Notes under the pieces: generated by a model
The model's database searches: none
The model's input: only the letters and a program-made list of their open reading frames with translations
What the model was told of the DNA's origin: nothing
Shown: positions 4,354 to 43,538 of the stretch, piece after piece
Layout of the letters: each line of letters starts with the position of its first letter
Position numbering within the stretch: position 1 is the first letter of the stretch
Virus record (IMG/VR): IMGVR_UViG_2848385391_000003
DNA: 64,000 nucleotides
Reading direction: 5' to 3' (one strand)
From: a virus
Taxonomy: Duplodnaviria > Caudoviricetes
Position numbers and translations under genes: made by a program

Positions 4354-4500
4354 CTATCTCCAATGGGTTAAGATGAAAAACATGCTTAACAAGCAGGCGA
4401 TCATCGAGATAAATACGGCGCTGGCTTTGATAAAAGCCTCAATCCGATCCGCTCGTAACGCGGCGCGTAGCAACGCGTTGTCGTTTTCAAGGCGTGTCAT
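4354..4500 (-). CDS. Small single-TM phage protein (48 aa, not in ORF track)
   Basis: MTRLENDNALLRAALRADRIEAFIKASAVFISMIACLLSMFFILTHWR; ATGA overlap with the upstream gene; homolog at 49535..49687. Confidence 0.6.
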   Translation of the reverse strand: MTRLENDNALLRAALRADRIEAFIKASAVFISMIACLLSMFFILTHWR

Positions 4501-5426
4501 GCGGAAAACTCTGGTAAAGAGCTATTGGCCTGCAAGTGCCGTTGCGCGAATTCGATCAAATGTCGATAGTCTTGAGTCGTATCCGAATCACCATGTTGTT
4601 CAACGACTCTTTGCAGGAACGCTTCGGAGGGGCCGCAAAAGGTTTCGTGCTTCACCTCAATCTCACCGCTACGCGCGCGATAAATGGTCAAAGCTATGCC
4701 ACGGAAATGAGAAAAATCAATAAAATCCTGATCGCTCGACACTCTCGCATTGCCGGATAAGTGCGTACGGCCTGACACCTCTGCCTTACCGAATACTTGG
4801 GCTTCACCAGATACACAAGCGTGGCCCGATATGTGCGCACTGCCTACTATCTGAGCACGGCCCAATACTTGCCCTTCTCCTGATACACAGGCGTAGCCCA
4901 ATACCCACGCTTTGCCCAATACGTGCGCTCGCTCTAATATCCGTGCATCCTCGGATACCCTGGCTTGCTCCAATACACGGGCCTTACCTGATACACGAGC
5001 CTCACCTGATACACAGGCATGGCCCGAGACTTGCCCTTCTCCTGATACACAGGCATATCCCAATACTTGGGCGTTGCCTGATACACGAACCTCACCTGAT
5101 ACACAGGCATGGCCCGAGACTTGCCCTTCTCCTGATACACAGGCGTAGCCCAATACTTGGGCGTTGCCTGATACGCGGGCCTTGTCCCATATTTGCGCGT
5201 CATCATCAACTTGGGCGTTTTCTAATACCCACGCATCCCCGTATACCCAGTAAGAACCTGAGTGACTTAAGTTGGCTTCTCGCTCTATATATCCGCCAAG
5301 ATCGCCTGCCTTGACCTCGTCAAAGTCCCGCAAGGCTCGGATTCGGAAGAGCTTATGGCCTGATTCCTCGATAAAATCATCAAGGGCTAATTCGTATTTC
5401 TTTGGCTCTAGAAATGTTTCTGACAT
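4497..5426 (-). CDS. Phage hexapeptide-repeat (left-handed beta-helix-like) protein
   Basis: N-terminal LFRIRALRDF..VKAGDLGGYIE, then many V(S/L)GxAx hexapeptide units. Confidence 0.8.
   Translation of the reverse strand: MSETFLEPKKYELALDDFIEESGHKLFRIRALRDFDEVKAGDLGGYIEREANLSHSGSYWVYGDAWVLENAQVDDDAQIWDKARVSGNAQVLGYACVSGEGQVSGHACVSGEVRVSGNAQVLGYACVSGEGQVSGHACVSGEARVSGKARVLEQARVSEDARILERAHVLGKAWVLGYACVSGEGQVLGRAQIVGSAHISGHACVSGEAQVFGKAEVSGRTHLSGNARVSSDQDFIDFSHFRGIALTIYRARSGEIEVKHETFCGPSEAFLQRVVEQHGDSDTTQDYRHLIEFAQRHLQANSSLPEFSA
4790..5180. repeat. 18-bp coding repeats with a 90-bp higher-order duplication
   Basis: cctgatacac recurs at multiples of 18 bp; gcgttgcctg at 5071 and 5161 marks the 90-bp period. 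Confidence 0.85.
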
Positions 5427-30427: not shown

Positions 30428-31413
30428 CTCTTTATGCACGTCCTGATGAACACGTCTTTGCTCAGGGTGCGCGCCCTGGAGAAGTTCAACCCTTTCCCGA
30501 TCTTTCCAGAGGGTGGGGCGTTGCCTTTGACCAGACTGGCGGCATCCCACCGATGGAATGGTTTAATTTTATTGGCAAACGCGCTGATGAAGCCATTCGC
30601 TATCTGATGCAACGCGGCTTGCCCGAATGGTCTGAGACAGAAGACTATCCTGAAGGCAGTTATATTCAATATTCTGGTAAAACCTATCGCGCCAAAGTAG
30701 CGAATAAGGGTAAAACGCCTTCAACTCATTTAGCCGAATGGGAAGAATGGGGTCTTACGCGTGAAGCGCTCAATGCGCACTTTCACCCCAAAGATGGGGA
30801 GTTGGCTTGGTCCAAAATCACCAAAACGCCAACAACATTAGACGGTTACGGTATTACCAATGCCGCTACGGCTCAAGATGTGGAACACCGCTTCTCCGAA
30901 ATCCATCAGCGCTTTCATCCTAAAAATGGTCCATTGCCTTGGGCAAAAATTTCTGACAAACCCACAACGCTCAGCGGATACGGCATTACAGATGCTGCGC
31001 CCATTGCGAACCCCGCTTTCTCCGGACAGCCTACCGCACCCACTCCGTCAGCTCAAGACAGGAGTACCCGTATCGCTACCACCGCTTCCACCTGGGCCAC
31101 CCTTCTTAGCCTGTTTACTGGACCTGACCGACAATCCTTTCAAGGCAACGGGTTCCAGAAACTTCCAGGTGGCCTCATTCTCCAATGGGGTTTCACCTCT
31201 ACCCACGGCAATGGAATGTCTAATGTGATTTTCCCTGTCAAGTTTTCAACGAAATGTCTGGCCATTCATGGCACTCATCTCGGCACTGGATGTGCAACCG
31301 TCATCGAATATGTCGGGACTCGAACCAATATCGGCGCCACATTGCGCACTCTCGATGAAAATGCCATGACCCGCGCAGGATGGGGCCTTCATTGGTTTGC
31401 TATTGGACATTAA
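30424..31413 (+). CDS. Tail fibre protein
   Basis: Two PTTL.GYGIT.A repeats and C-terminal FQKLPGGLILQWG. Confidence 0.85.
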   Translation: MTLYARPDEHVFAQGARPGEVQPFPDLSRGWGVAFDQTGGIPPMEWFNFIGKRADEAIRYLMQRGLPEWSETEDYPEGSYIQYSGKTYRAKVANKGKTPSTHLAEWEEWGLTREALNAHFHPKDGELAWSKITKTPTTLDGYGITNAATAQDVEHRFSEIHQRFHPKNGPLPWAKISDKPTTLSGYGITDAAPIANPAFSGQPTAPTPSAQDRSTRIATTASTWATLLSLFTGPDRQSFQGNGFQKLPGGLILQWGFTSTHGNGMSNVIFPVKFSTKCLAIHGTHLGTGCATVIEYVGTRTNIGATLRTLDENAMTRAGWGLHWFAIGH

Positions 31414-31465
31414 TTTGCCCTCTCATGTCTATTCTTCTGTTTTCTATTTAAACCCACTTCATCGT

Positions 31466-31885
31466 ATGACTTTTTATTATTCAAAATCAGAACCCGGATT
31501 TTACTGCGTCGGGATACATGGCGATAACATCCCTAAAGATGCTGTCTCTATTACTCAAGAAGAGCACACCGCATTGCTCAATGCCCAATCCAAAGGTAAA
31601 TGGATCCAGTCTAATGAGAACGGCTACCCAGTGGCTGTTGACCCGCCTCCACTTACCCCTGAGGAGTGGGCCGACATTAATTTACGCTGTCGACAGGCTC
31701 GGTTGAGTCAAGCGGCTTTAAAAGTCGCTCCTTTACAAGATGCCGTAGACCTCAACATCGCCACGGATGACGAAAAACAGCTTCTCAAAGAATGGAAACT
31801 TTATCGAGTTGCTCTCAACCGCATTGAGCAGCACTCTAGCCTTTCCGCCGAGATCGAATGGCCTAAACCGCCTGATGAGAATTGA
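31466..31885 (+). CDS. Tail fibre assembly chaperone
   Basis: PLQDAVDL.IAT..E..L.EWK.YRV.LNRI..WP.PP. Confidence 0.88.
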   Translation: MTFYYSKSEPGFYCVGIHGDNIPKDAVSITQEEHTALLNAQSKGKWIQSNENGYPVAVDPPPLTPEEWADINLRCRQARLSQAALKVAPLQDAVDLNIATDDEKQLLKEWKLYRVALNRIEQHSSLSAEIEWPKPPDEN

Positions 31886-31903
31886 ACCCATTGATATTGT
31901 GTC

Positions 31904-31928
31904 GACCGCCTTAGAGCGGTCTTTTTTT
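31904..31928 (+). terminator. Intrinsic terminator before the lysis genes
   Basis: GACCGC-loop-GCGGTC followed by T7. Confidence 0.7.
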
Positions 31929-31947
31929 CGTCTACACACCTCTATAT

Positions 31948-32373
31948 ATGACCGACACCTTTGACAGGGCCACACTCGTTTCAGAGCTTAAACGCGATGA
32001 AGGCGAGCGCTTGAAACCCTACTTCGATACCGTCGGCAAAATCACCATCGGCGTCGGGCGCAATTTGACGGATGGGGGCATCTCTCAAAGCGAATCCGAG
32101 ATCCTTTTGCATAACGATATTGCACGAACGCTTAGATGGCTGGATCGGAATTTACCCTGGTGGCGCACGCTAGATACAGTGCGGCAACGTGTGCTCATCC
32201 ATATGGCCTTTAACCTGGGCGGCAATCTTCTGACCTTTGTTCATACTCTAGATGCCATGCAACGCAACGACTACGCAGCCGCGGCTAACGGCATGCTCGC
32301 ATCCAAATGGGCGAATCAGGTCGGCCAACGAGCACGGCGCCTAGCTAATATGATGCGCACCGGAAAAATTTAA
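31948..32373 (+). CDS. Endolysin, T4-type lysozyme fold
   Basis: DEG...Y.DT.G..TIGVGRNL (E-x8-D-x5-T triad); SKWA.QVG.RA. Confidence 0.9.
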   Translation: MTDTFDRATLVSELKRDEGERLKPYFDTVGKITIGVGRNLTDGGISQSESEILLHNDIARTLRWLDRNLPWWRTLDTVRQRVLIHMAFNLGGNLLTFVHTLDAMQRNDYAAAANGMLASKWANQVGQRARRLANMMRTGKI

Positions 32374-32389
32374 CTCTCAACATCAAAAA

Positions 32390-32680
32390 ATGAATCTTCA
32401 CGAACATGACCGAATGCTTGCCATATTGGCTGCGATGGGTGCTGTGCTTGGGATTGGTAAATTGCTCAATGGCGGCGAGAAAATTACCGCTCGGCTGATT
32501 ATCGGGCGCATGATTGTGGGTGCGGGCTTAAGCGTCGCCGCCAGCTCCACCCTCATGCTTCTGCCTGAACTTTCTCCGATCGCTGTCACAGGCCTCGGCG
32601 CAGCACTCGGCATTCTCGGCCAGTCCTATTTGGAAATGGCTGTACAACGCTGGTTTGGGAAACGCTCAAATGCTAACTAA
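32390..32680 (+). CDS. Holin
   Basis: 96 aa, several hydrophobic segments, basic C-terminus, lysis-cassette position. Confidence 0.8.
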   Translation: MNLHEHDRMLAILAAMGAVLGIGKLLNGGEKITARLIIGRMIVGAGLSVAASSTLMLLPELSPIAVTGLGAALGILGQSYLEMAVQRWFGKRSNAN

Positions 32681-33194
32681 TTGGCTTGCCGGTCCGTCGC
32701 GCCTATTGTGCGTCGCAGCAACCGCTTTCAGTTTTGGCGTAGGGTGCGCGGGTTTTTTGTATTACAACCCACGCATTCAGAAAGAACGCTCAGCGCTAGT
32801 GCACTATAAAGCTCAACTCACCATGGCCCAAGCTCAATTGATTGAAGCCCAAACCAAAGTCATCATCCAAACCGAAATTCAATACCGCGACCGCATCAAA
32901 ATCGTCAAAGAAAAAGGCGACACGATTATTAAGGAAGTGCCCATCTATGTTAATCAAGCTGATACTGACCATTTCGGCGTTAACGTTGGCTTCGTGCGCC
33001 ACCACAACGCAGCCTTTGCCAACGAGTCTGCCGGACCTGCCGCCCACTTTGACCGAGAACCCGCCGGAATTTCGCTTGCTGAGATTGCCGAAGTCAACGC
33101 TTTTAACGCCAACGTCTGCTGGCAATGGCGGGAACAAGCGCTTAGATTAAGAGCATTTTACCGGCAGTTACAGCATATACACTCTATGCCATAA
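32670..33194 (+). CDS. Inner-membrane spanin (Rz-like)
   Basis: N-terminal TM and coiled coil, hosts an embedded lipoprotein ORF. Confidence 0.75.
   Translation: MLTNWLAGPSRLLCVAATAFSFGVGCAGFLYYNPRIQKERSALVHYKAQLTMAQAQLIEAQTKVIIQTEIQYRDRIKIVKEKGDTIIKEVPIYVNQADTDHFGVNVGFVRHHNAAFANESAGPAAHFDREPAGISLAEIAEVNAFNANVCWQWREQALRLRAFYRQLQHIHSMP
32947..33150 (+). CDS. Outer-membrane spanin (Rz1-like lipoprotein), embedded
   Basis: MLIKLILTISALTLASC signal with lipobox LASC, Pro-rich mature part, +1 frame inside Rz. Confidence 0.8.
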   Translation: MLIKLILTISALTLASCATTTQPLPTSLPDLPPTLTENPPEFRLLRLPKSTLLTPTSAGNGGNKRLD

Positions 33195-33390: not shown

Positions 33391-36300
33391 TTACGCTAAC
33401 ACAGCACCTCGCTGCTTTAACAGCTTACCATTCATTTCGCTTAACCCTTCCACTCCTTCTATTAACGCTCCTCTCACTGTCAAAAAATTATGACCCGTAC
33501 TCCACCTGAAATACGCCTTATATTTCCCCTCTTCTTTTCGCAATTCCCATTGCCGAACAGAGTTATCTAGACTACCTATCCCTAAATAGTGAATACCCGA
33601 TGCCTCTTTCCAGGCAAGGCTTGCAATCGGTCCACTATCTTCAATCAGTATTTGGCACTCTCCCGTTTGGGGGTCCCACAGCCGCACCGTAGTGTCAGAA
33701 CTCCCCGACGCTACCTGATCTCCTCTCGGCGAATACGCTACGCTAAAAACTCTATCTGTATGCCCTTCTAACTTCTGCTTCTGCTCTCCGCTTTCTATAT
33801 CCCACAGCCGCACCGTCTTATCTACACTCCCCGACGCGACCTGATCTCCTCTCGGCGAATACGCTACGCTATAAACTCTATCTGTATGCCCTTCTAACTT
33901 CTGCTTCTGCTCTCCGCTTTCTATATCCCACAGCCGTACCGTCTTATCTTCACTCCCCGACGCGACCTGATCTCCTCTCGGCGAATACGCTACGCTCAAA
34001 ACTCTATCTGTATGCCCTTCTAAATTCTGCTTCTGCTCTCCGCTTTCTATATCCCACAGCCGTACCGTATTGTCTTCACTCCCAGACGCGACCTGATCTC
34101 CTCTCGGCGAATACGCTACGCTATAAACTCTATCTGTGTGCCCTTCTAAATTCTGCTTCTGCTCTCCGCTTTCTATATCCCACAGCCGCACCGTATTGTC
34201 CCAACTACCCGACGCTACCTGATCTCCTCTCGGCGAATACGCTACGCTAAAAACTATATCTGTATGCCCTTCTAACTTCTGCTTCTGCTCTCCGCTTTCT
34301 ATATCCCACAGCCGTACCGTATTGTCTTCACTCCCAGACGCTACCTGATCTCCTCTCGGCGAATACACTACGCTCAAAACTCTATCTGTGTGCCCTTCTA
34401 AATTCTGCTTCTGCTCTCCGCTTTCTATATCCCACAGCCGCACCGTATTGTCCAAACTCCCCGACGCTACCTGATCTCCTCTCGGCGAATACACTACGCT
34501 CAAAACTATATCTGTATGCCCTTCTAACTTCTGCTTCTGCTCTCCGCTTTCTATATCCCACAGCCGCACCGTATTGTCCAAACTCCCCGAAGCGACCTGA
34601 TCTCCTCTCGGCGAATACGCTACGCTAAAAACTACATCTGTATGCCCTTCTAACTTCTGCTTCTGCTCTCCGCTTTCTATATCCCACAGCCTTACCGTAT
34701 TGTCAGAACTCCCCGACGCTACCTGATCTCCTCTCGGCGAATACGCTACGCTCACAACTCCATTTGTATGCCCTTCTAACTTCTGCTTCTGCTCTCCGCT
34801 TTCTATATCCCACAGCCGCACCGTATTATCTTGACTCCCCGACGCTAACTGATCTCCTCTCGGCGAATACGCTACGCTAAAAACTATATCTGTATGCCCT
34901 TCTAATTTCTGCTTCTGCTCTCCGCTTTCTATATCCCACAGCCGCACCGTAGTGTCAGAACTCCCAGACGCTACTTGATCTCCTCTCGGCGAATACGCTA
35001 CGCTCACAACTCCATTTGTATGCCCTTCTAAATTCTGCTTCTGCTCTCCGCTTTCTATATCCCACAGCCGCACCGTAGTGTCTAAACTCCCCGACGCTAC
35101 CTGATCTCCTCTCGGCGAATACGCTACGCTAAAAACTACATTTGTATGCCCTTCTAAAGTACGGAGTTTTTCCCAATTCGAGGTCCCGTACACGCTAATC
35201 TTACCGTTTTCAAGCCCTATGGCACAGGTTTTCCCATCGGGTGAATACACACAAGAATATACTTTGCTCTCTCCTTGGATATAGGGCCATTCACCAAACT
35301 GCGCCCCTTCCATTTTTGCCTCGCTTAAATTCGCCTGGCGTAACCAACTTTTGCGTAAATTCACCTTCCTTAAATCTGCCCCTTGCAGTTCAGCAGAATC
35401 AAATAACCCATAGCTCAAATCCGCTCCAGGTATCCGGATTCTATTTAAATCCCACCCAGTAAACGGCACCCCTGCTTTCACCAAGATCGTCATCGCATTC
35501 GCCGCACCCCGACTCACAAAATCTGTCTGCGTTGAGCCTTTGAGCCAGACCAGCAGGGGTTTCACCAGCGCTTTGTTCTGTTGCACACGCTCCACTAAAA
35601 ACCGCTGAACCCCTGCATCCTCCACCAGATTAAATCGGTTCAATAATCCTTCCGGATTTACCTGATCCGAGTCATTCAGCGTTTTCCAGAGCGCCTGGAC
35701 ATTCCTCATTCCGCTCGAGGATTCGCATGCGCCCCCTCCTGCCGCCTCTTCCAGTTCTTGCCACATCCCACGCGCCACCAGATAATCCTGAATCGATTTA
35801 TGGATAAACCGATATTGATCTCCTTGGCGAATTAACGGCGCATTAAACCGCAACAGCCGCGTCTTTTCTTCTGCGTCCCCTAAATACTGCGCTCGCCAAC
35901 CCCCTTTTTTTCCATCCTTCGCTTCTGAATACGTGACCGACACCAACTGCTCTTCATACATCGCTAACGCCAGATTTTGACTATACTCCAAGCCGTGCAG
36001 TGTAAATTCATCATCCAGATCCTCAAACGCTTCCTGCTCCTTAGGTTTGAGTGGGATGCGCGCCAACCTTTCCTGTGATCGGTTGAACCAATTTTCCACG
36101 GACCTCTCATATAACCCCATACGCGTCAGCTTCGAGTGCTCTTCCTCCGCTTTTAGGCTCGGCAACACCTCTAACGTCATTTTCAACATAAACGGCGTGC
36201 GCACTAATTCTTTTAACTCTGCGATTTCTTTAAATAACTGTTTGTAATCCTCTGCTTTCCACTTCGGTTTCGTATAACTCACATATTGATCAATATAGTG

Positions 36301-38454
36301 CTCTATCGATGCATCCGAAAACGACGACAACCGATATTCTTCCAATGCGCCAGGTCTGCCTATTGGATGAAACTTATTTTGATAATGATCTCCTAAATAT
36401 TCCGGCCGGCTGCTGATAATCACTTTCGCTTGCCAACGCTCTAGTTTATTATCCGCATAGAAGGCGCGTGAACGTTGCGCTATTTCGTCATACCCATCCA
36501 GAATAAAAATAAACCGACCACCTTTACGTAAATTTTCTATCTCGGGTTTCGATAAACCTTGTTCTTCCAGATATTGTTCGATCAAATTTCTGCCAGGGTT
36601 CTCTAGCGTAGCCAATGATATGAATAACGGGATTGGCCTGTCTTGGGTATTTTCCGCTTGGATATAGTCTTTCCATAACCGACGTGCCATGTGACGATTA
36701 AATGTTGACTTACCGCTCCCCCCTTCACCTAACAGCAATAAGACTTTTTTATCCGAATCCAAAAACGCATTGACCTTCTCTTCTAAATCAAAATGTTCTG
36801 TCGCCTCCGCTGTGAGCTTACCTTGCGGTGCAACATACATCGCCAAACCATCCTGGATTTCTCCAAGCTCTTCCCAGTCCTTGAAATATTCTGCCTGGAT
36901 ACTTTCACCTAAAATCGCAAGTGGCTCTTTCTTCGATTTCAGTTCTTTTTCTTGCTGATGCTTCAATTGTTGATGGAGTTGCTGCACGGTAAGGGCAAGC
37001 TCGTTGTGTAACGCTTTCCGTATATCATCGAAAATACTGTCTACGAGTTGGGTAAACTCAAGCCCATCAAACTTTGAATCGGTCTTCAAATGCGAAATAC
37101 AATCACTGTACCCCTGCCAAAACTTATTCAGAAACGTTTGGGCTTCGTCACTACCCGCTAACAGCCGCTCGATCAGCTTAAAGAGCACCCCATGCCGACT
37201 TTGATTCGCATACACTTCTCGCCCTGCTTGCACTTGTTCTTCAAAGCGCGGTATGTCTTCCATCCGAACCGCTGTCGCTGAAACAAAATCTGACAAGCAC
37301 GCATCGTAGCTATTCAAGGTTAACGCAACCGGAATAATCCCATGCTTATCTTTAAGCTCTTCTGCTCGGATTTGCAAAAATGCCATTTCTGTCAATACAT
37401 GATGGAACCCGGCCTTATAGCTTTCCTCTTGCGAGAATTCTCTGACCACCTCACGTATCGCCATCGCGCTATCTTGCTCACTATCTTTCAGATACGCTTC
37501 TCGATCTTTGCGATACGCCTCTCGCAGTTTCTGATAAAAGTGGCCATAATCCGACCACTTTAGATAACTTCCCAATACCTCAGAACAACACACCGTGACC
37601 TTATCGACCGGGGTCACATCGCCTCGCAACCGCCCCGGTAATAGACACAGCTGATTGGTTAAAATATCTTCTAGCTTGCCGTCCTTTTTCAGATCTCTCG
37701 AAACACTTGAATACGGTTGCCCCATCGGCGTTTGATCCGAATACAAAATCACTTGAATTTGAGAGAGCTTTTCAATTAAATATTTAGAGGTAGAGGCCTC
37801 AGCCTTTCCGTGGGCTGGATTGTCATGCGCATATACTAAAAACAGGCTGGGTTTATTCGCGACCTTTAAGGCTCCCAGCGTCGACAGCGCCTTTTCAAAC
37901 AGGTAATCCATCTGCTTGCTTTTTTCTTCGATAGACACATCAACCTCTCGTTGCGGAGGCGTTAGACTCAGTTTTGAAGGCCGCGCATTTGCAACCCACT
38001 CTTTTGTTGGATCCAGTTGTTTTCTATTCCCCTCGCTCACACTCTCATTTTTAATTAAAAATGAGCTGTACCGTGCGCTTATTTGTTGATGCAACATTCG
38101 CGCGCCAGTTTGCTTCATATCCATATAAGGCGCGTACTCTAACGCCTTTTTATAATTCTCCTCAGCGCCGAATTTATCGTCTTTGCGTAGAAAAGTGCCA
38201 TAGTAAAAATGGCTTGCGGCAAGTTGCTCTCTTATTTTTCTTAAGTCAGACTCATTTTGAGTGCTTTGCAGCACGTCTTCTGCTTTGCGAATGCCTCCTT
38301 CAAAGCAGTCCTTTGCTTTCTCTAGATCTCCTTGCTTCTCATAGCGCGTTGCTTCCTCTCGAAGCTTATTAGCTGCTGACAAGCCAGAAACTGAAATGGG
38401 TGTCGTATTAACCTCTCTACTCCCAATCCCCCTCAATGCATTCAAATTAAACAT
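33391..38454 (-). CDS. NLR-like protein: TPR-like, TIR/SEFIR-like, NACHT, pentapeptide, WD40 x14
   Basis: Walker A GEGGSGKS, Walker B FILDGYDE, ADLS/AELQ/ANLS pentapeptides, 12 GH..WD repeats plus two degenerate blades. Confidence 0.92.
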   Translation of the reverse strand: MFNLNALRGIGSREVNTTPISVSGLSAANKLREEATRYEKQGDLEKAKDCFEGGIRKAEDVLQSTQNESDLRKIREQLAASHFYYGTFLRKDDKFGAEENYKKALEYAPYMDMKQTGARMLHQQISARYSSFLIKNESVSEGNRKQLDPTKEWVANARPSKLSLTPPQREVDVSIEEKSKQMDYLFEKALSTLGALKVANKPSLFLVYAHDNPAHGKAEASTSKYLIEKLSQIQVILYSDQTPMGQPYSSVSRDLKKDGKLEDILTNQLCLLPGRLRGDVTPVDKVTVCCSEVLGSYLKWSDYGHFYQKLREAYRKDREAYLKDSEQDSAMAIREVVREFSQEESYKAGFHHVLTEMAFLQIRAEELKDKHGIIPVALTLNSYDACLSDFVSATAVRMEDIPRFEEQVQAGREVYANQSRHGVLFKLIERLLAGSDEAQTFLNKFWQGYSDCISHLKTDSKFDGLEFTQLVDSIFDDIRKALHNELALTVQQLHQQLKHQQEKELKSKKEPLAILGESIQAEYFKDWEELGEIQDGLAMYVAPQGKLTAEATEHFDLEEKVNAFLDSDKKVLLLLGEGGSGKSTFNRHMARRLWKDYIQAENTQDRPIPLFISLATLENPGRNLIEQYLEEQGLSKPEIENLRKGGRFIFILDGYDEIAQRSRAFYADNKLERWQAKVIISSRPEYLGDHYQNKFHPIGRPGALEEYRLSSFSDASIEHYIDQYVSYTKPKWKAEDYKQLFKEIAELKELVRTPFMLKMTLEVLPSLKAEEEHSKLTRMGLYERSVENWFNRSQERLARIPLKPKEQEAFEDLDDEFTLHGLEYSQNLALAMYEEQLVSVTYSEAKDGKKGGWRAQYLGDAEEKTRLLRFNAPLIRQGDQYRFIHKSIQDYLVARGMWQELEEAAGGGACESSSGMRNVQALWKTLNDSDQVNPEGLLNRFNLVEDAGVQRFLVERVQQNKALVKPLLVWLKGSTQTDFVSRGAANAMTILVKAGVPFTGWDLNRIRIPGADLSYGLFDSAELQGADLRKVNLRKSWLRQANLSEAKMEGAQFGEWPYIQGESKVYSCVYSPDGKTCAIGLENGKISVYGTSNWEKLRTLEGHTNVVFSVAYSPRGDQVASGSLDTTVRLWDIESGEQKQNLEGHTNGVVSVAYSPRGDQVASGSSDTTVRLWDIESGEQKQKLEGHTDIVFSVAYSPRGDQLASGSQDNTVRLWDIESGEQKQKLEGHTNGVVSVAYSPRGDQVASGSSDNTVRLWDIESGEQKQKLEGHTDVVFSVAYSPRGDQVASGSLDNTVRLWDIESGEQKQKLEGHTDIVLSVVYSPRGDQVASGSLDNTVRLWDIESGEQKQNLEGHTDRVLSVVYSPRGDQVASGSEDNTVRLWDIESGEQKQKLEGHTDIVFSVAYSPRGDQVASGSWDNTVRLWDIESGEQKQNLEGHTDRVYSVAYSPRGDQVASGSEDNTVRLWDIESGEQKQNLEGHTDRVLSVAYSPRGDQVASGSEDKTVRLWDIESGEQKQKLEGHTDRVYSVAYSPRGDQVASGSVDKTVRLWDIESGEQKQKLEGHTDRVFSVAYSPRGDQVASGSSDTTVRLWDPQTGECQILIEDSGPIASLAWKEASGIHYLGIGSLDNSVRQWELRKEEGKYKAYFRWSTGHNFLTVRGALIEGVEGLSEMNGKLLKQRGAVLA
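33650..35160 (-). repeat. 12 tandem 126-bp WD40-coding repeats
   Basis: gatctcctctcggcgaatac recurs every 126 bp; 42-aa unit LEGHTxxVxSV(A/V)YSPRGDQVASGSxDxTVRLWDIESGEQKQ. Confidence 0.97.
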
Positions 38455-38806
38455 CTTCTTCCCCTCTTATAACTTATTTAGAACTGCGTGGATAAAAAAC
38501 GCTGCTTACCAGAATAAAAGCAGCGTCTTGTCTTCTCTCCCCCTTATAGGGAATCAGGATCATTCATTTAACGCCACCCAAGCGAGCTCCACTTCACCAG
38601 GAAACCACCTGAATTCACTAAAATTTCGCTGACATCGACGCTATTCCAGCGAAATTTAACCAGCGAAATTTTACGTCAAATTTGCTTCGGAAAACTTATA
38701 CCTAATTCGCCCTAATAAGGCCTAAAAAGCCCTAATTGGGCTATTGCTCCGAAGCAAAAAAACCGCTATCCTGTTGTTTATATTAACTTTTGTTGATTTA
38801 CCTCCA

Positions 38807-38868
38807 GGACTCGAAATCCGGTATACTGGTCCCCAGTATCGAGGGTTCAAATCCCTCCCTTTCCGCCA
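38807..38868 (+). tRNA. 3' half of tRNA-Ser(CGA), att core duplicate (not an intact tRNA)
   Basis: Anticodon loop CTCGAAA, long variable arm ATACTGG/CCAGTAT, T arm GAGGGTTCAAATCCCTC, CCA end; no 5' acceptor strand or D arm. Confidence 0.9.
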
Positions 38869-38892
38869 AAAGCCTGTGTTTATAAGGCTTTT
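38868..38892 (+). terminator. Hairpin after the tRNA fragment
   Basis: AAAAGCCT...AGGCTTTT inverted repeat. Confidence 0.5.
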
Positions 38893-39407
38893 CAGTTTTA
38901 ACTCCGCACTTCTGCGCCGGTTTTTGCTTCGCACTCCCTCTTCTGATTCCTTGTTTGGCCCCATCGCTTAAAGCCCTGCGCCGGTTTTTTGCTTCGGAAT
39001 GGGTTATTTCGTCCGTTGCGTGGGCGGGCTGATCGCAACGATCAAGACTCAGAAAAACGGTTGAGTGGGGTCGGAGCTTGGAATAATTTTTTATCGTCTT
39101 GCGCCGTGCTGTGAAGAACAGTAGAACAAACCCACGTCAGGAGAATTTCTAGATGTTTTAGAGGGAGAATAACTGTCAAGCCTGCTGGCTTCTTGTGATA
39201 CTACAATATTGCTTTTTCCGGTGGGTCTGAACGAAAACCCACCGAAATTTCAATTGCTGAGATAACCAAAGTCAACTCTGACTTCAACGCTAGCGTCTGC
39301 TAGCAGTAATGCGAACAAACGCCAGCGCTTAAAATTTTATCGGCGCTTACAGCAAACGCAGCGGGATTCTCTACCAACTCAAAGACTCCCGCCTTCCGCC
39401 AATAGGC

Positions 39408-42062
39408 CTATATTGCGCCTCGTTGTCTTAACAAAGCAGCATTTTGAGAGCTGAGATTAAGGGCATTTTGGATGAGGGCACCTGATGCAGTAAGCCCGTC
39501 TTGTCGTGAAGTCCAATCTAACAAAATTGGACCTATTTCACCTGAGCGATAAGGGACTTGCCAAAGACGAATAGTTTTGTCCTCTCCTGCCGTAGCCAAT
39601 AGGGCCACTTCATCCTGTGTGGGTTTCCACACAATAGTACTAATACCACCCACACAGCCTTTGAGTACCGCTTGACAATCGCCTGTTAAAACAGACCATA
39701 ACCTGATTGTTTGATCCCTACTTCCAGACGCGAGCCAATGACCATCTTTTGAGAACGCGACACAATTCACACTATCCGTATGCCCAGTATAGGTGTGAGC
39801 CAGAGCGCGCTCCCCCCTCATGTGCCACAGCTTCACCGTACCATCATCACAAATAGACGCGAGCCAATGACCATCGTTTGAGAATGCGACACGATACACA
39901 CCATCGTCATGCCCGACGTAGGAGTAAGCCATAGCTTGTTCACCAACCACGTGCCACAGCTTCACTGTATTATCCCCACTTCCAGATGCAAGCCACTGTC
40001 CATCGTTTGAGAATGCGACACTGCTGACAATATCGGTATGCCCGATATAAGAGTGAGCCAAGGTACGCTCGCCCCCTGCGCACCACAGCTTTACCGAATT
40101 ATCTGAACTTCCAGATGCAAGCCACTGCCCATCTTTTGAGAACGCGACACAATTCACACTATCCGTATGCCCAGTATAGGTGTGAGCCAGAGTGCGCTCC
40201 CCGTCCATGCGCCATAACTTCACCGTCTTATCCCTGCCTCCAGACGCGAGCCACTGACCATCGCTTGAGAACACAGCACTAATCACCATATCCGTATGTC
40301 CGGTATAGGTGTGAGCCAGAGTGCGCTCTCGGTCCACGCACCATAACTTTACCGTCTTATCCCAACCCACAGACGCGAGCCACTGACCATCGCTTGAGAA
40401 CGCAGCACTATTCACCATATCATCATGCTCAACATAGGAGAAGGGCATAACCTGTTCACCGGTCACGCGCCACAGCTTCACCGAATTATCTAAACTTCCA
40501 GATGCAAGCCACTGACCATCGCTTGAGAACGTGACACTATTCACCCTATCCGTATGCCCAGTATAGGTGTGAGCCAGAGTGCGCTCACCTTCCACGTGCC
40601 ACAACTTTACCGTAGTCCTACCTCCAGATGCCAACCATTGCCCATCGTTTGAGAATGCGACACTATTCACTCCATGTGGATGCCCAATATAAGTGTGAGC
40701 CAGAGTGCGCTCACCCTCCACGTGCCATAAATTCACTGTATGACCATTTCCATGTGGAGGCCATTGCCAATCGTTTGTTCCAGATGCGAGCCATTGCCCA
40801 TCTTTTGAGAATGCAACACTGTATACCTTGTTCTTATGTTCGGTATAGGAGTGGGCCAAGGCACGTTCGCCTGCTACGTGCCACAGCTTCACCGTCTTAT
40901 CATCGCTACCAGATGCGAGCCAATGGCTATCATTTGAGAATGCGACACTTGTCACCATACTCATATGCCCGGTATAGGTGTGAGCCAGAGTGCGGTCGCC
41001 CTCTACACACCACAGCTTCACTGTACAATCCCCACCTCCTCCAGATACTAGCCACTGACCATCGTTTGAGAATGCTACACTTGTCACCACACCCGTATGC
41101 GTATAGGAGTGGGCTAGCGCGCGTTCGCCCTCCACGCACCACATCTTTACCGTCTTATCCCCACTTCCAGACGCGAGCCGCTGTCCATCACTTGAGAATG
41201 CGACACTATACACATAGCTCGTATGCCCTTCATAAGTATGAATTTTTTGGAAATTCTTTGTTTCATAAAGATGGATAGCATTGCCTTCTGTCACAGCCAG
41301 CCAGCGCCCAACTGGCGAATAACAACACGCATAAACAGCGCTTTCCATTTCTAAAGAGGGCTTTTCACCAAAATCTACTCCTGCTAAATCAGCACCATCT
41401 AAATTAACACCATTCAGCCAAGTATCGGTCCAATTTACGCCTGTTAAATCGGCTCCTTGAAATTGCGTAGAATCAAACACTCCATAACTTAAATCTGCCC
41501 CAGGCACACGTATCCCTTGGAGATCCTTATTATTGAATTGCGCCCCTGCCTTCACTAATAGCGTCAGCGCGTTAGCTGCTGTAGCCTGCACCTCTTCTGT
41601 TTTGGACCGTTCCACCCAGTTCAATAATTTCTCTTTTAGCGAAATGTCTTGCTGGACTTTTTCTTGCAAAAATTTAAGTATTTCTGGATCATTAACAAGA
41701 CATATCAGCCCAAAAAGTGCAGATTTCTCAACGACCTGATCGAGTCGCCCTGAGTCAGATAACTTTTGCAATTGACTCAATGTGAATTTCTTTAACTCTA
41801 CATCCGAACTTATTAGAGCTCCTTGATATTGCGCCTGAATCCTTTCTTTGATCAGATGTAGCTTCAGAGCAGGTGAATCCATGGGTTCACCATTATGAGT
41901 CGGTGTTGTCAGTGCTTTAAGCAAAGCCTGACGGCTCGAAAAATCGAGCAGCTTTTCTATTTCTTGCCGAATTTCTGCGGGAAGCGAGAGAAAACCGGAT
42001 TCTGTGGATTTTTGTGTTACTGGATAGTGCAGATTGACAGAGCTTGAAATAGGGTTCAGCAT
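39408..42062 (-). CDS. F-box-like, pentapeptide, WD40 x14 protein
   Basis: FLSLPAEIRQEIEKLLDFSSRQAL near the N-terminus; GADLSYGVFDSTQFQGADL; 12 related ~43-aa WD40 units plus two divergent ones; start ATG 42062 or TTG 42080. Confidence 0.88.
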   Translation of the reverse strand: MLNPISSSVNLHYPVTQKSTESGFLSLPAEIRQEIEKLLDFSSRQALLKALTTPTHNGEPMDSPALKLHLIKERIQAQYQGALISSDVELKKFTLSQLQKLSDSGRLDQVVEKSALFGLICLVNDPEILKFLQEKVQQDISLKEKLLNWVERSKTEEVQATAANALTLLVKAGAQFNNKDLQGIRVPGADLSYGVFDSTQFQGADLTGVNWTDTWLNGVNLDGADLAGVDFGEKPSLEMESAVYACCYSPVGRWLAVTEGNAIHLYETKNFQKIHTYEGHTSYVYSVAFSSDGQRLASGSGDKTVKMWCVEGERALAHSYTHTGVVTSVAFSNDGQWLVSGGGGDCTVKLWCVEGDRTLAHTYTGHMSMVTSVAFSNDSHWLASGSDDKTVKLWHVAGERALAHSYTEHKNKVYSVAFSKDGQWLASGTNDWQWPPHGNGHTVNLWHVEGERTLAHTYIGHPHGVNSVAFSNDGQWLASGGRTTVKLWHVEGERTLAHTYTGHTDRVNSVTFSSDGQWLASGSLDNSVKLWRVTGEQVMPFSYVEHDDMVNSAAFSSDGQWLASVGWDKTVKLWCVDRERTLAHTYTGHTDMVISAVFSSDGQWLASGGRDKTVKLWRMDGERTLAHTYTGHTDSVNCVAFSKDGQWLASGSSDNSVKLWCAGGERTLAHSYIGHTDIVSSVAFSNDGQWLASGSGDNTVKLWHVVGEQAMAYSYVGHDDGVYRVAFSNDGHWLASICDDGTVKLWHMRGERALAHTYTGHTDSVNCVAFSKDGHWLASGSRDQTIRLWSVLTGDCQAVLKGCVGGISTIVWKPTQDEVALLATAGEDKTIRLWQVPYRSGEIGPILLDWTSRQDGLTASGALIQNALNLSSQNAALLRQRGAI

Positions 42063-42202
42063 AAATATTTTATTGTTCAATTAAAGTAAAATCATCTGAT
42101 GAATTTTCATAAGCCCTGACCCAGGACTTATTCATGACTCACCCATGTGAGTCGCCAGATTTTACAGAAAAAATACAAATTAATTAAACCCGCCAGCTTC
42201 TA

Positions 42203-43273
42203 TCATTTCGTCGGCTCTACTTTCTCGCCTCGACGATTGCGCACATAGTGTTCCGTCATCTTGATGCTTGTATGCCCCAACTGCTTTTGCGCTCGACGAA
42301 TATCCCCCGATAACTCCGCCTTGTCTGTTCCCGCTTTCGCTCGTAAGTCTCGAAATTGATATTCCGCTGCGCATAAGCCTGCCGCTGTGCGCGCTTGCGC
42401 AAACATCGCTTGCAGCGTCTTTAACGCAACGCACTCTCCTAACTCATTCACCACCAAATCAACATGCCCTGTGTTGTACTTGGCTTTTCTCTTTAATATG
42501 CGCTCTAACGTCTTCTCCAGATGACCGGTGATCGCTATCCTCAGTTTCGTCTTCGTCTTGTTTTGCTGCACCAGCAGACACCCTTCTTTGATATCCTGCT
42601 CTGTCATCTTTAAAATATCCGATGGGCGCTGACCCGTCAGATACGCTAAATCCATCGCATCCCGCAACGGTTGCCGTGCTTTCGCATAAATCGCGCTATA
42701 TTCACTGTCTTCGATATAGACTTTACGCCCGTCTTCTCGATAGCCCTTGATCCCCAAACACGGATTCGGCTGATCCGTATACCCCCATTCTCTTGCCTTA
42801 TTCCAGATGTGCGAGAATAACGACTTCTCTCGATTCGCTCTGACCTGCCCTTCGCTCCCATTGACGGCCTGACCTGCCTCTTTCAGTTTTCTGACAGTCT
42901 CTTTCACGCGCCAATCTAAAAACTGACGGATATGGATCGGCTTGATCTCGTCCATTAATGCCGGCGGATTATCAAAGAATTCCAGCAATTTAACCAGCTC
43001 CGCCAAATTGTCTTTCTGCGTGCGAGGCGCTTTTGTTGGGATCACGTCTTGTCTATATCTTTGTGCTGCATGACGAAACGTTACCCTGACTCGATCCTCC
43101 AATTGGTTTTGACTATCCAGCTCTGTCCACTTTTGCAGCGCTTCTAGATAATCTGGCCCCAGCGCGATCTCCTGTCTCGAGGAATGGCCCGTGTCGTAGT
43201 AATAATAGGTTTGCCCGCTACGCTGTACCCTCGCTCGCATCCGAGGCGGTAAATTAAACGCGGTTTGGCTCAT
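42203..43273 (-). CDS. int: Tyrosine integrase
   Basis: TGQRPSD (R), FRDLRAK, LGHT..MTEHY catalytic residues. Confidence 0.95.
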   Translation of the reverse strand: MSQTAFNLPPRMRARVQRSGQTYYYYDTGHSSRQEIALGPDYLEALQKWTELDSQNQLEDRVRVTFRHAAQRYRQDVIPTKAPRTQKDNLAELVKLLEFFDNPPALMDEIKPIHIRQFLDWRVKETVRKLKEAGQAVNGSEGQVRANREKSLFSHIWNKAREWGYTDQPNPCLGIKGYREDGRKVYIEDSEYSAIYAKARQPLRDAMDLAYLTGQRPSDILKMTEQDIKEGCLLVQQNKTKTKLRIAITGHLEKTLERILKRKAKYNTGHVDLVVNELGECVALKTLQAMFAQARTAAGLCAAEYQFRDLRAKAGTDKAELSGDIRRAQKQLGHTSIKMTEHYVRNRRGEKVEPTK

Positions 43274-43538
43274 CTTTTACCTGGATCGCTAACTTCGGTT
43301 GCCAACTTTTCGCTTTCACTTCTTCTGACCGACCCTCTACCGCGGCACGCGTCACAATCGGCCGACCTCGCTGGTTCATAAAAAATACGATCTCCTGCTC
43401 TTTTAAATAGGCTTCCTGCCTTTCGTATTTACTCGCCTTGCGGGCATATGCGGTTCCCGCTTCCAGCGTCTTGCCCCGCCTGATCCCTGTCAGCTCATCC
43501 ACTTGCGCTTCGGTCAAAAAAACTTCACTCATTTCCAC
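43254..43538 (-). CDS. Excisionase-like protein (DUF4224-type)
   Basis: FLT..VDELTG..Q..YL..GRPIV.R; overlaps the integrase start. Confidence 0.75.
   Translation of the reverse strand: MEMSEVFLTEAQVDELTGIRRGKTLEAGTAYARKASKYERQEAYLKEQEIVFFMNQRGRPIVTRAAVEGRSEEVKAKSWQPKLAIQVKDEPNRV

Follow-up and report, generated by a model that had tools for sequence, protein, structure and literature searches.

NLR-type NACHT-WD40 genes as accessory cargo in the att-flanking arms of a tRNA-integrating prophage lineage of Mycoavidus cysteinexigens

Fungal receptors of the HNWD type (HET-E, HET-D) combine a NACHT nucleoside triphosphatase (NTPase) module with WD40 repeats and belong to NACHT clade 18 of Kibby et al., a HetD/E-like clade reported to include homologs from bacterial endosymbionts of fungi (10.1101/2022.07.19.500537). 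Fungal receptors of this type are thought to come from bacterial endosymbionts, with Mycoavidus named as donor to the Mortierellomycota. NACHT-pentapeptide-WD40 proteins of Mycoavidus cysteinexigens were described as the likely source of the NOD-like receptors (NLRs) of Mortierellomycota (10.1101/2021.12.02.471044), and N-terminal domains, one of them called TIR/HET-like, are reported as common to fungal NLRs and Mycoavidus (10.1101/2022.03.16.484565). The family and its kinship with fungal NLRs are already known; how such NLR genes multiply and move has had no explanation so far. The present analysis concerns a stretch of 64,000 nt (Caudoviricetes; IMG/VR record IMGVR_UViG_2848385391_000003; hereafter the window) from genome G000, in which two large genes, P0001 (33391-38454, minus strand) and P0002 (39408-42062, minus strand), lie on either side of a phage attachment (att) core. 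P0001 and P0002 are members of a very large paralogous NLR-type family in Mycoavidus, and the family genes are accessory cargo in the att-flanking arms of an Aaphi23-like, tRNA-integrating lineage of temperate contractile-tailed phages. A first-pass annotation of the window, made from the letters alone, had proposed a Mycoavidus-like endofungal symbiont as host; G000 is M. cysteinexigens, and the named homologs come from Mycoavidus spp.

The Mycoavidus proteins are like HET-E and HET-D in their NACHT and WD40 architecture and in having 42-aa repeats of ~90% identity with few hypervariable positions in each (PMC1805685). Sequence homologs in Mortierellaceae are 33-58% identical to P0001. The Mycoavidus genes are unlike HET-E and HET-D in being bacterial and prophage-carried, and the proteins have a pentapeptide-repeat linker between the nucleotide-binding oligomerization domain and the WD40 repeats. 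A HET domain was not found in the Mycoavidus proteins scanned by Pfam, the N-terminal modules being instead ARM_5, an unnamed 330-aa domain, short motif tails, or the domain of the P0002-type proteins (P2-type) that have no NACHT.

The second described system to which the locus is close is the eukaryotic association module of Wolbachia phage WO, also carried by a prophage of an intracellular symbiont, with very large modular att-adjacent genes, a NACHT-repeat protein and host homologs (PMC5062602). Unlike phage WO, the Mycoavidus phage is an Aaphi23-like myovirus that integrates in tRNA genes. Its cargo is one family that is abundant outside prophages, whereas the eukaryote-like domains of WO are described as almost confined to the module. 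Arm carriage in Mycoavidus is described here from integrated prophage sequence. In a literature search on Mycoavidus, which did not extend to the supplementary prophage maps of PMC5877345, these genes were nowhere assigned to prophage arms, and PMC5877345 mentions neither WD40 nor pentapeptide repeats. Three features appear to be new: the systematic carriage in att arms, the persistence of the genes once a prophage has decayed, and their diversification, at the level of alleles, from one sister prophage to the next.

Attachment sites and arms of the tandem prophages

The att core (38807-38868, plus strand) is a copy, 100% identical over 62 nt, of positions 30-91 of tRNA-Ser(CGA). The intact tRNA gene is located at G000 1739458-1739548, 5.9 kb to the left of the window, and an ARAGORN scan of the window detected no tRNA. 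Copies of the 62-nt core were found at G000 1784229 (the window copy), 1830941 and 1877226, and shorter tRNA-Ser core copies at 1893946, 1903552, 1911474 and 1527516. The intervals between successive cores correspond to three prophages of 44.7, 46.7 and 46.3 kb, designated P1, P2 and P3, which are arranged in tandem with ~90% nt identity from integrase to lysis genes and with differing arm genes. Beyond the third prophage come three shorter units, of 16.7, 9.6 and 7.9 kb.

Two direct repeats, CCGGTTTTTGCTTCG-like, were located 109 and 174 nt past the core start (38917-38996, plus strand). Four matches of this type were found in the window compared with 0.15 expected, and the pair recurs beside the Ser core copies with a fixed spacing, 96-109 and 161-174 nt from the listed core start. 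It also follows the core stretch of the intact tRNA-Ser gene and six of the seven fragment copies, the seventh having one copy of the repeat. The repeats are candidate integrase arm-type sites, and from their position the DNA to the right of each Ser core would be a phage left arm. P0001 accordingly belongs to the right arm of P1, on the side of the lysis genes, and P0002 to the left arm of P2, on the side of the integrase. Both genes lie in att-bounded arms of P1 and P2, as had been proposed in the first-pass annotation, and the att core, P1 lysis cassette and P2 integrase on which that proposal rested were borne out by the 62-nt tRNA-Ser fragment and by PHROGs matches.

The body of P1 (1-33194, plus strand as listed, with early genes on the minus strand and late genes on the plus strand) has its integrase and left arm to the left of the window. 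It ends with a lysis cassette (31948-33194, plus strand) of an endolysin, a holin and a phrog_4952 protein; PHROGs matches at 31397-32680 identified a tail-fibre assembly protein, the endolysin and the holin. The body of P2 (42203-64000, plus strand as listed), ~90% identical to P1 in nucleotide comparison, runs past the end of the window and begins with a tyrosine integrase (42203-43273, minus strand; phrog_1, E 1.8e-43), 95% identical copies of which are present in P1 and P3, and an excisionase (43254-43538, minus strand; phrog_8896, E 1.1e-8). The tail sheath is 44-45% identical to the sheaths of Aaphi23, S1249 and Pmp2, matches indicating a temperate contractile-tailed phage.

The arm positions of the three tandem prophages are occupied by different members of the family, the result of the survey of att-proximal slots that the first-pass annotation had suggested. 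The left arms contain a 931-aa NACHT gene, P0002 and a 1271-aa NACHT gene, respectively, and the right arms contain P0001, two NACHT genes (1290 and 1276 aa) and a 1741-aa twin of P0001. Two more prophages of the lineage are integrated in G000 at tRNA-Asn and tRNA-Gly(CCC), with att repeats that enclose family genes starting 63 and 164 bp past the last phage-like open reading frame (ORF). A family gene is present at the lysis end in five of five P1-like prophages, 6-736 bp past the last phage ORF and within the att repeats. The genes are thus located between att repeats and outside the core modules, as is characteristic of prophage cargo.

Family genes also remain where little of the phage is left. 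The 16.7-kb unit comprises a core, a P2-type gene, an integrase (93% identical), few early genes, a NACHT gene and a core, and the 7.9-kb unit comprises only a core, a P2-type gene, a NACHT gene and a core. Remnants of the last lysis gene adjoin family genes three more times further to the right. Throughout G000, 20 tRNA fragments of at least 24 nt were found outside tRNA genes, derived from Thr, His, Asn, Gly, Leu, Ser and Lys tRNAs. Fifteen of the 20 lie within 1.5 kb of a family gene compared with 4.1±1.8 expected (maximum 11 in 2000 randomisations), a statistic in which the copies within one array are not independent. The minus strand of the circular phage would carry, in order, the integrase gene, a P2-type gene, attP and a NACHT gene, the last converging on the lysis cassette. 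Integration splits this string at the core, and where prophages have integrated in tandem and their bodies have then decayed, the arm genes are left behind.

A few further features of the window were recorded. An early-region ORF (4497-5426, minus strand; 309 aa) encodes ~25 hexapeptide-type repeats ([VL]SG.A.V), visible as an 18-nt period in the nucleotide sequence. The window has a strongly negative GC skew along its whole length. A scan for promoters and terminators returned fewer sites than in shuffled sequences and was uninformative.

Domain architecture and the WD40 repeat surface

The two large WD40 ORFs described in the first-pass annotation were recovered with the shared chassis and tail motifs. 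The family architecture is a variable N-terminal module, a NACHT module that is absent in proteins of the P0002 type, a conserved helical chassis, a short pentapeptide solenoid and ~14 WD40 blades. P0001 encodes 1687 aa, in which Pfam matches and motif location gave the order unnamed N-terminal domain, NACHT, chassis, pentapeptide repeats and WD40. The NACHT module (aa 571-726; 36277-36744, minus strand) was identified above the gathering score when the N-terminal part was scanned alone (PF05729, E 1.2e-10, 42.0 bits compared with a cut-off of 26.7). It contains a Walker A motif, GEGGSGKST (aa 576-584; 36703-36729, minus strand), and a Walker B motif, ILDGYDE (aa 651-657; 36484-36504, minus strand), the latter fitting the D[GAS]hDE given as the NACHT signature in 10.1101/2022.07.19.500537. 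The chassis and pentapeptide repeats (aa 961-1060; 35275-35574, minus strand) have matches in 86 ORFs of G000. P0001 and P0002 have in common AANA[ML]T[IL]LVKAG, [IV]PGADLSYG.FDS, the pentapeptide repeats and the tail GALI...LL.QRGA. The pentapeptide family PF00805 was above the gathering score in P0002 (39.6 bits, cut-off 20.2) and below it in P0001 (16.1 bits). Pfam located 12 WD40 stretches in P0001 and 13 in P0002, and 14 blades were counted by eye in P0001.

The twelve 42-aa WD40 repeats of P0001 (33646-35157, minus strand) are 90.5% identical to one another at the nucleotide level, and their alignment, in the register L1-E2-G3-H4, revealed hypervariable positions 7, 9, 25, 27 and 42. Codon differences at these five positions were 239 nonsynonymous and 8 synonymous, compared with 124 and 189 at the other 37 positions. 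The same positions distinguish the sister copies of the gene. The P1 and P3 copies of P0001 are 94% identical without gaps, and only 2 of 540 N-terminal residues differ. In the repeats 49 of 72 variable-position residues differ compared with 15 of 432 other repeat residues, the signature at the variable positions being different in every repeat. Positions 7, 9 and 25 are presumably the known hot spots on the top face of WD40 blades. P0001 therefore has the high internal conservation and few diversifying positions that define repeats of the HET-E/D kind; for het-d and het-e, concerted evolution and four diversifying surface residues per repeat have been reported (PMC1805685).

The N-terminal domain of P0001 (aa 165-510; 36925-37962, minus strand) is common to nine paralogs with a mean column identity of 74% and contains the motifs FLVYAHDN and VCCSEVL, the second of which we take to resemble the TIR catalytic region. 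It is possibly a TIR-like effector. No Pfam TIR match was obtained in any of the nine paralogs, and a PDB profile search with the domain returned no match. The AlphaFold2 model was poor (predicted local distance difference test, pLDDT, 58), and Foldseek with that model returned no match. The top matches in a protein-language (Atlas) search were all TIR_2 with a score of 0.88, below 0.9, and are a lead only. No match to the HET family was detected by Pfam (E≤1) in P0001 aa 1-1040 or in the nine N-terminal domains. Of the TPR/TIR-like/NACHT N-terminus that the first-pass annotation had assigned to P0001, the NACHT module stands, TPR fell below its cut-off (17.3 compared with 27), and TIR is an unproven lead that Pfam, the structure model and the Atlas score do not establish.

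P0002 is the NACHT-less type of the family. The ORF at 39408-42080 (minus strand) would encode 890 aa if translated from TTG; alignment with 11 paralogs indicated ATG at 42062 (MLNPISSS) as the likely start, giving 884 aa. No Pfam match to NACHT or AAA was found in aa 1-240, and blast revealed only the chassis, N-terminal domain and tail. The P2-type N-terminal domain (~160 aa; 41586-42062, minus strand) is a lineage-restricted family with 12 copies in G000, for which the AlphaFold2 model was all-helical with a pLDDT of 82. Among 1.84 billion searched, only 35 cluster representatives were obtained at E≤1e-3 and 31 at E≤1e-10, and none of ten relatives that were looked up carried a name. Proteins of this type would be sensor-only or regulatory partners of the NACHT-bearing members.

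An F-box, proposed for P0002 in the first-pass annotation, was considered and rejected. P0002 is like eukaryotic F-box/WD40 receptors in that a short helical N-terminal module, marked by an invariant L-P (LSLP.EI..EIE..L), precedes the WD40 blades. It is unlike them in that a pentapeptide solenoid intervenes and that none of 11 members had an F-box match in Pfam at E≤10. The best hit in a PDB profile search was unrelated (E 0.24), and the best match of the all-helical model against solved folds in Foldseek had an E of 0.95.

Contigs of public sequencing runs, which were fragmentary, yielded no usable joint for excision or attP. Those of two runs join position 42290 back to 38977, a distance of 3314 nt that spans P0002 and its spacers. 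The joint, with sides of 33-35 nt, is probably a short-repeat assembly effect, a small circle or a duplication being also possible.

The family in M. cysteinexigens, related bacteria and fungi

Searches of all ORFs of G000 by blast with pieces of the domains identified 86 chassis ORFs and 74 NACHT-region ORFs, a family total of 89. The 89 ORFs are long and open (364-2826 aa), occupy 374,922 nt or 13.4% of the 2.8-Mb genome, and are distributed in 35 clusters. For 47 of the family ORFs the cluster has a P1-like phage ORF no more than 5 kb away, and for 42 it has none. The first-pass annotation had presented P0001 and P0002 as a cassette; the pair is not special, being 2 of 86 chassis ORFs in a family of which 42 of 89 lie away from P1-like phage ORFs. 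Clustering of the sequences upstream of NACHT or chassis yielded 35 short N-termini, 31 long N-termini, 12 of the P2-type without NACHT, and small classes of 5, 3 and 3. Ten N-termini were scanned, nine of the long class and one of medium length. PF23948 (ARM_5) was present in all nine of the long class (E 1e-58 to 1e-116), and several ARM_5 N-termini are preceded by TPR. With at least five N-terminal classes on one chassis, the modular character of the family suggested earlier is upheld. An ORF of 2826 aa at G000 1052882-1061362 resembles two fused family members, with two copies of the N-terminal domain and a tail motif in mid-protein. Family genes are almost all on the plus strand before ~1.1 Mb, on the minus strand thereafter, and again on the plus strand near 2.69 Mb, strand switches that indicate co-orientation with the presumed direction of replication.

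A NACHT and chassis query had matches in 8 of 31 related genomes, comprising all six of the genus (G000 included) and two in neighbouring genera, and no match in the other 23. There were 16-52 matches in the five congeners and 47 and 1 in the two neighbouring genera. The P1-like sheath was found in only one of the five congeners, and the four sheath-less congeners still hold 16-52 family matches, indicating that the family persists without this phage. The smallest congener searched (1.9 Mb) keeps 16 matches.

The left flank and tRNA-Ser are present in all five congeners, which allowed the integration site to be compared. In G001 (1.9 Mb) the site is empty and without a family gene, and from ~1.3 kb past the tRNA 14 ORFs match G000 1992524-2011299 with 85-97% aa identity. 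The 253 kb of G000 between tRNA-Ser and tRNA-His (1739548-1992310), with 19 family ORFs, has no counterpart in G001. Had the two genes been chromosomal loci fixed in prophage-free strains, the first-pass annotation would have been contradicted; at this locus the empty site of G001 is without both genes. The 253-kb segment consists of two facing arrays of integrated elements, marked by Ser cores and His fragments, and the second array, to which the tRNA-His fragments at 1938970 and 1955079 belong, is growing in the direction of the first. In G002 the same slot after tRNA-Ser is occupied by an 83%-identical ortholog of P0002 beside phage remnants. Beyond this ortholog lie another P2-type gene, part of an integrase, remnants of late and lysis genes, a family gene, a core and one more P2-type gene (86% identical). 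The tRNA-Ser site of G005 holds a different prophage, and fragments of family genes follow both its lysis gene and the next core.

A quick maximum-likelihood tree of the NACHT and chassis region was built from 82 rows, comprising 73 paralogs of G000 (one NACHT-bearing ORF being outside the tree) and nine fungus-labelled proteins picked by name from the homolog listing. The fungal rows fall at at least four separate places. A row labelled Actinomortierella wolfii groups with P0001 in a clade of five rows with a Shimodaira-Hasegawa-like approximate likelihood ratio (SH-aLRT) of 99. Another 'fungal' row, with 82% identity to a G000 paralog, may represent an endosymbiont contig in a fungal assembly. 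Intact prophages contribute nine arm genes, which are dispersed over the tree (seven changes). The root is arbitrary, and the tree therefore gives no direction of transfer.

Possible functions of the family and their alternatives

The reading that is tentatively preferred is that the proteins are NLR-type sensors carried as prophage cargo, acting as ligand-gated receptors of the STAND class (signal transduction ATPases with numerous domains) in conflict inside the bacterium. Each protein would work as a ligand-gated switch. The top surface of the WD40 propeller, variable at few positions per repeat, would bind a rapidly evolving partner; binding would release oligomerisation of NACHT, and the N-terminal module would deliver the output. 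The most likely setting would be immunity, with the lysogen protected against other phages. This reading is favoured because a STAND receptor would fit the domain architecture, with its NTPase motifs intact, as well as repeats that diversify at their surface and an accessory position in prophages. Bacterial NACHT proteins are reported to be antiphage (10.1101/2022.07.19.500537), and STAND defence genes are known to reside in accessory loci of prophages, according to work cited in that source and in another. The Mycoavidus proteins are like the bNACHT and Avs antiphage STANDs in their tripartite order of effector, NTPase and repeat sensor, in intact Walker A and B with D[GAS]hDE, and in prophage location; WD40 beta-propeller sensors are reported among defence STANDs.

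Several results weigh against an antiphage role. Unlike bNACHT and Avs, the family is without a PADLOC model match beyond the WD40 repeats, is present in 86 copies per genome and includes NACHT-less members. PADLOC models matched only the WD40 region (HEAT-ARM_XIII), with none for the N-terminal domain. P0002 has no NTPase, yet a STAND switch needs one. A copy number of 89 ORFs and 13.4% of a reduced genome is extreme for defence, the usual defence-gene load of genomes being far below 13.4%. Endofungal Burkholderiaceae and the fungi that host them are the only organisms with the family, and no NACHT and chassis homolog was found among 50,697 deposited phage genomes, in which four Ralstonia phages matched the pentapeptide part only. 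With the arm genes dispersed over the tree, phages may equally well have captured chromosomal copies or deposited them. Finally, the Ser-rich leaders and secretion-apparatus genes described below fit a host-directed role equally well.

The eukaryote interaction put forward in the first-pass annotation is a hypothesis. In its host-directed form, which is possible though rather unlikely, the family would be delivered to the cytoplasm of Mortierella, for instance through a type III system, where the WD40 repeats would bind fungal proteins and mimic or jam host NLRs as a counterpart of the WO module. The low-complexity S/T/P/N-rich leaders noticed at first pass hold as a family-wide trend, with Ser at 16.6% of the first 25 aa compared with 7.8% in the background, and are rich in Ser, Thr, Pro, Asn and Gln across different classes of N-terminal domain. 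The family leaders are Ser-rich and acid-poor, and three rules describe type III signals: residues 2-12 free of D and E, one of I, L, V or P as residue 3 or 4, and a Ser content of 12% or more over the first 25 aa. The rules were satisfied by 39 of 89 family ORFs compared with 65 of 945 background ORFs, a statistic inflated by the non-independence of paralogs. Profile matches identified three full-length FHIPEP (SctV/FlhA) ORFs and three SctJ-sized YscJ_FliF ORFs (G000 232900-236970, 679053-695179, 899021-900979 and 2098287-2098784), a set suggestive of two or more export apparatuses of the type III kind in the 2.8-Mb genome; a putative type III secretion system is mentioned in PMC5877345. Confinement of the family to 8 of 31 related genomes and the close homologs in Mortierellaceae at several places of the tree are also in agreement with a host-directed role, as is the precedent of att-adjacent NACHT-ankyrin genes with host homologs in phage WO (PMC5062602). 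Against it, double-propeller proteins of 100-220 kDa would be unlikely type III substrates, a NACHT switch normally acts in the producing cell, and the F-box reading, an argument for eukaryotic targeting, is unsupported. Some of the 'fungal' homologs, in particular the row 82% identical to a G000 paralog, may be endosymbiont contigs.

It is very unlikely that the family reflects selfish amplification, in which the genes would spread by hitch-hiking on att adjacency to active phages and by mutual recombination, with weak or heterogeneous cellular function. The att-proximal location at scars of seven tRNAs, the tandem arrays and the scattering of arm genes in the tree would be expected from such spread. 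In addition, the right arms of P1 and P3 are 96.4% identical over 5475 nt, above the ~90% of the bodies, suggesting recent exchange. Against this explanation, all 89 ORFs are open and nonsynonymous change is concentrated at few repeat positions on a conserved scaffold. Arm genes outlast phage genes and the 1.9-Mb congener keeps its 16 matches, both of which argue for selection on function.

Four short motifs, VQIGNG..NN, NYGLINIP, [ST].GLVSIP and ENCVVSNQ, are characteristic of the short N-terminus class, one of them being present at aa 40-80 in 30 family proteins (for example at G000 1830504-1830533 in the right arm of P2, outside the window), and we take them to resemble the amyloid signalling motifs of fungal and bacterial NLRs. 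Least likely of the explanations considered is that the proteins are amyloid- or death-fold-type receptors in which these motifs would signal bacterial self/non-self recognition or programmed cell death in the manner of fungal HET-E/NWD2, as short N-termini with amyloid-like motifs in fungal NLRs (10.1101/2022.03.16.484565) and the endosymbiont homologs in NACHT clade 18 (10.1101/2022.07.19.500537) might suggest, for P0001 and P0002 both lack the motifs, their amyloid nature is only a resemblance, and no partner with a matching motif was found elsewhere in G000, where the single outside match was a remnant of a family N-terminus.

Beyond the preferred reading of the proteins as intrabacterial STAND receptors, a wider scheme may be drawn, which as a whole is quite unlikely. 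Temperate phages of endofungal bacteria would amplify and move HET-E-like NLR genes by means of exchangeable arm cassettes, and decay would deposit them in the bacterial chromosome. Phage DNA released in hyphae would have seeded the Mortierellaceae repertoire more than once, and the bacterial copies, with their Ser-rich leaders, may also be exported against the homologous host receptors. If true, phage-borne NLR traffic would be a fungal counterpart of the eukaryotic association module of phage WO. The locus itself presents NLR-type genes in the arms of active-looking prophages, kept after decay and diversifying at a predicted binding surface. It gives a concrete, testable mechanism for the expansion of such genes to 13% of a reduced genome and possibly for their transfer to the host, in a culturable bacterium in which it can be asked whether a symbiont uses its NLR-like proteins as protection from phages or directs them at its eukaryotic host.

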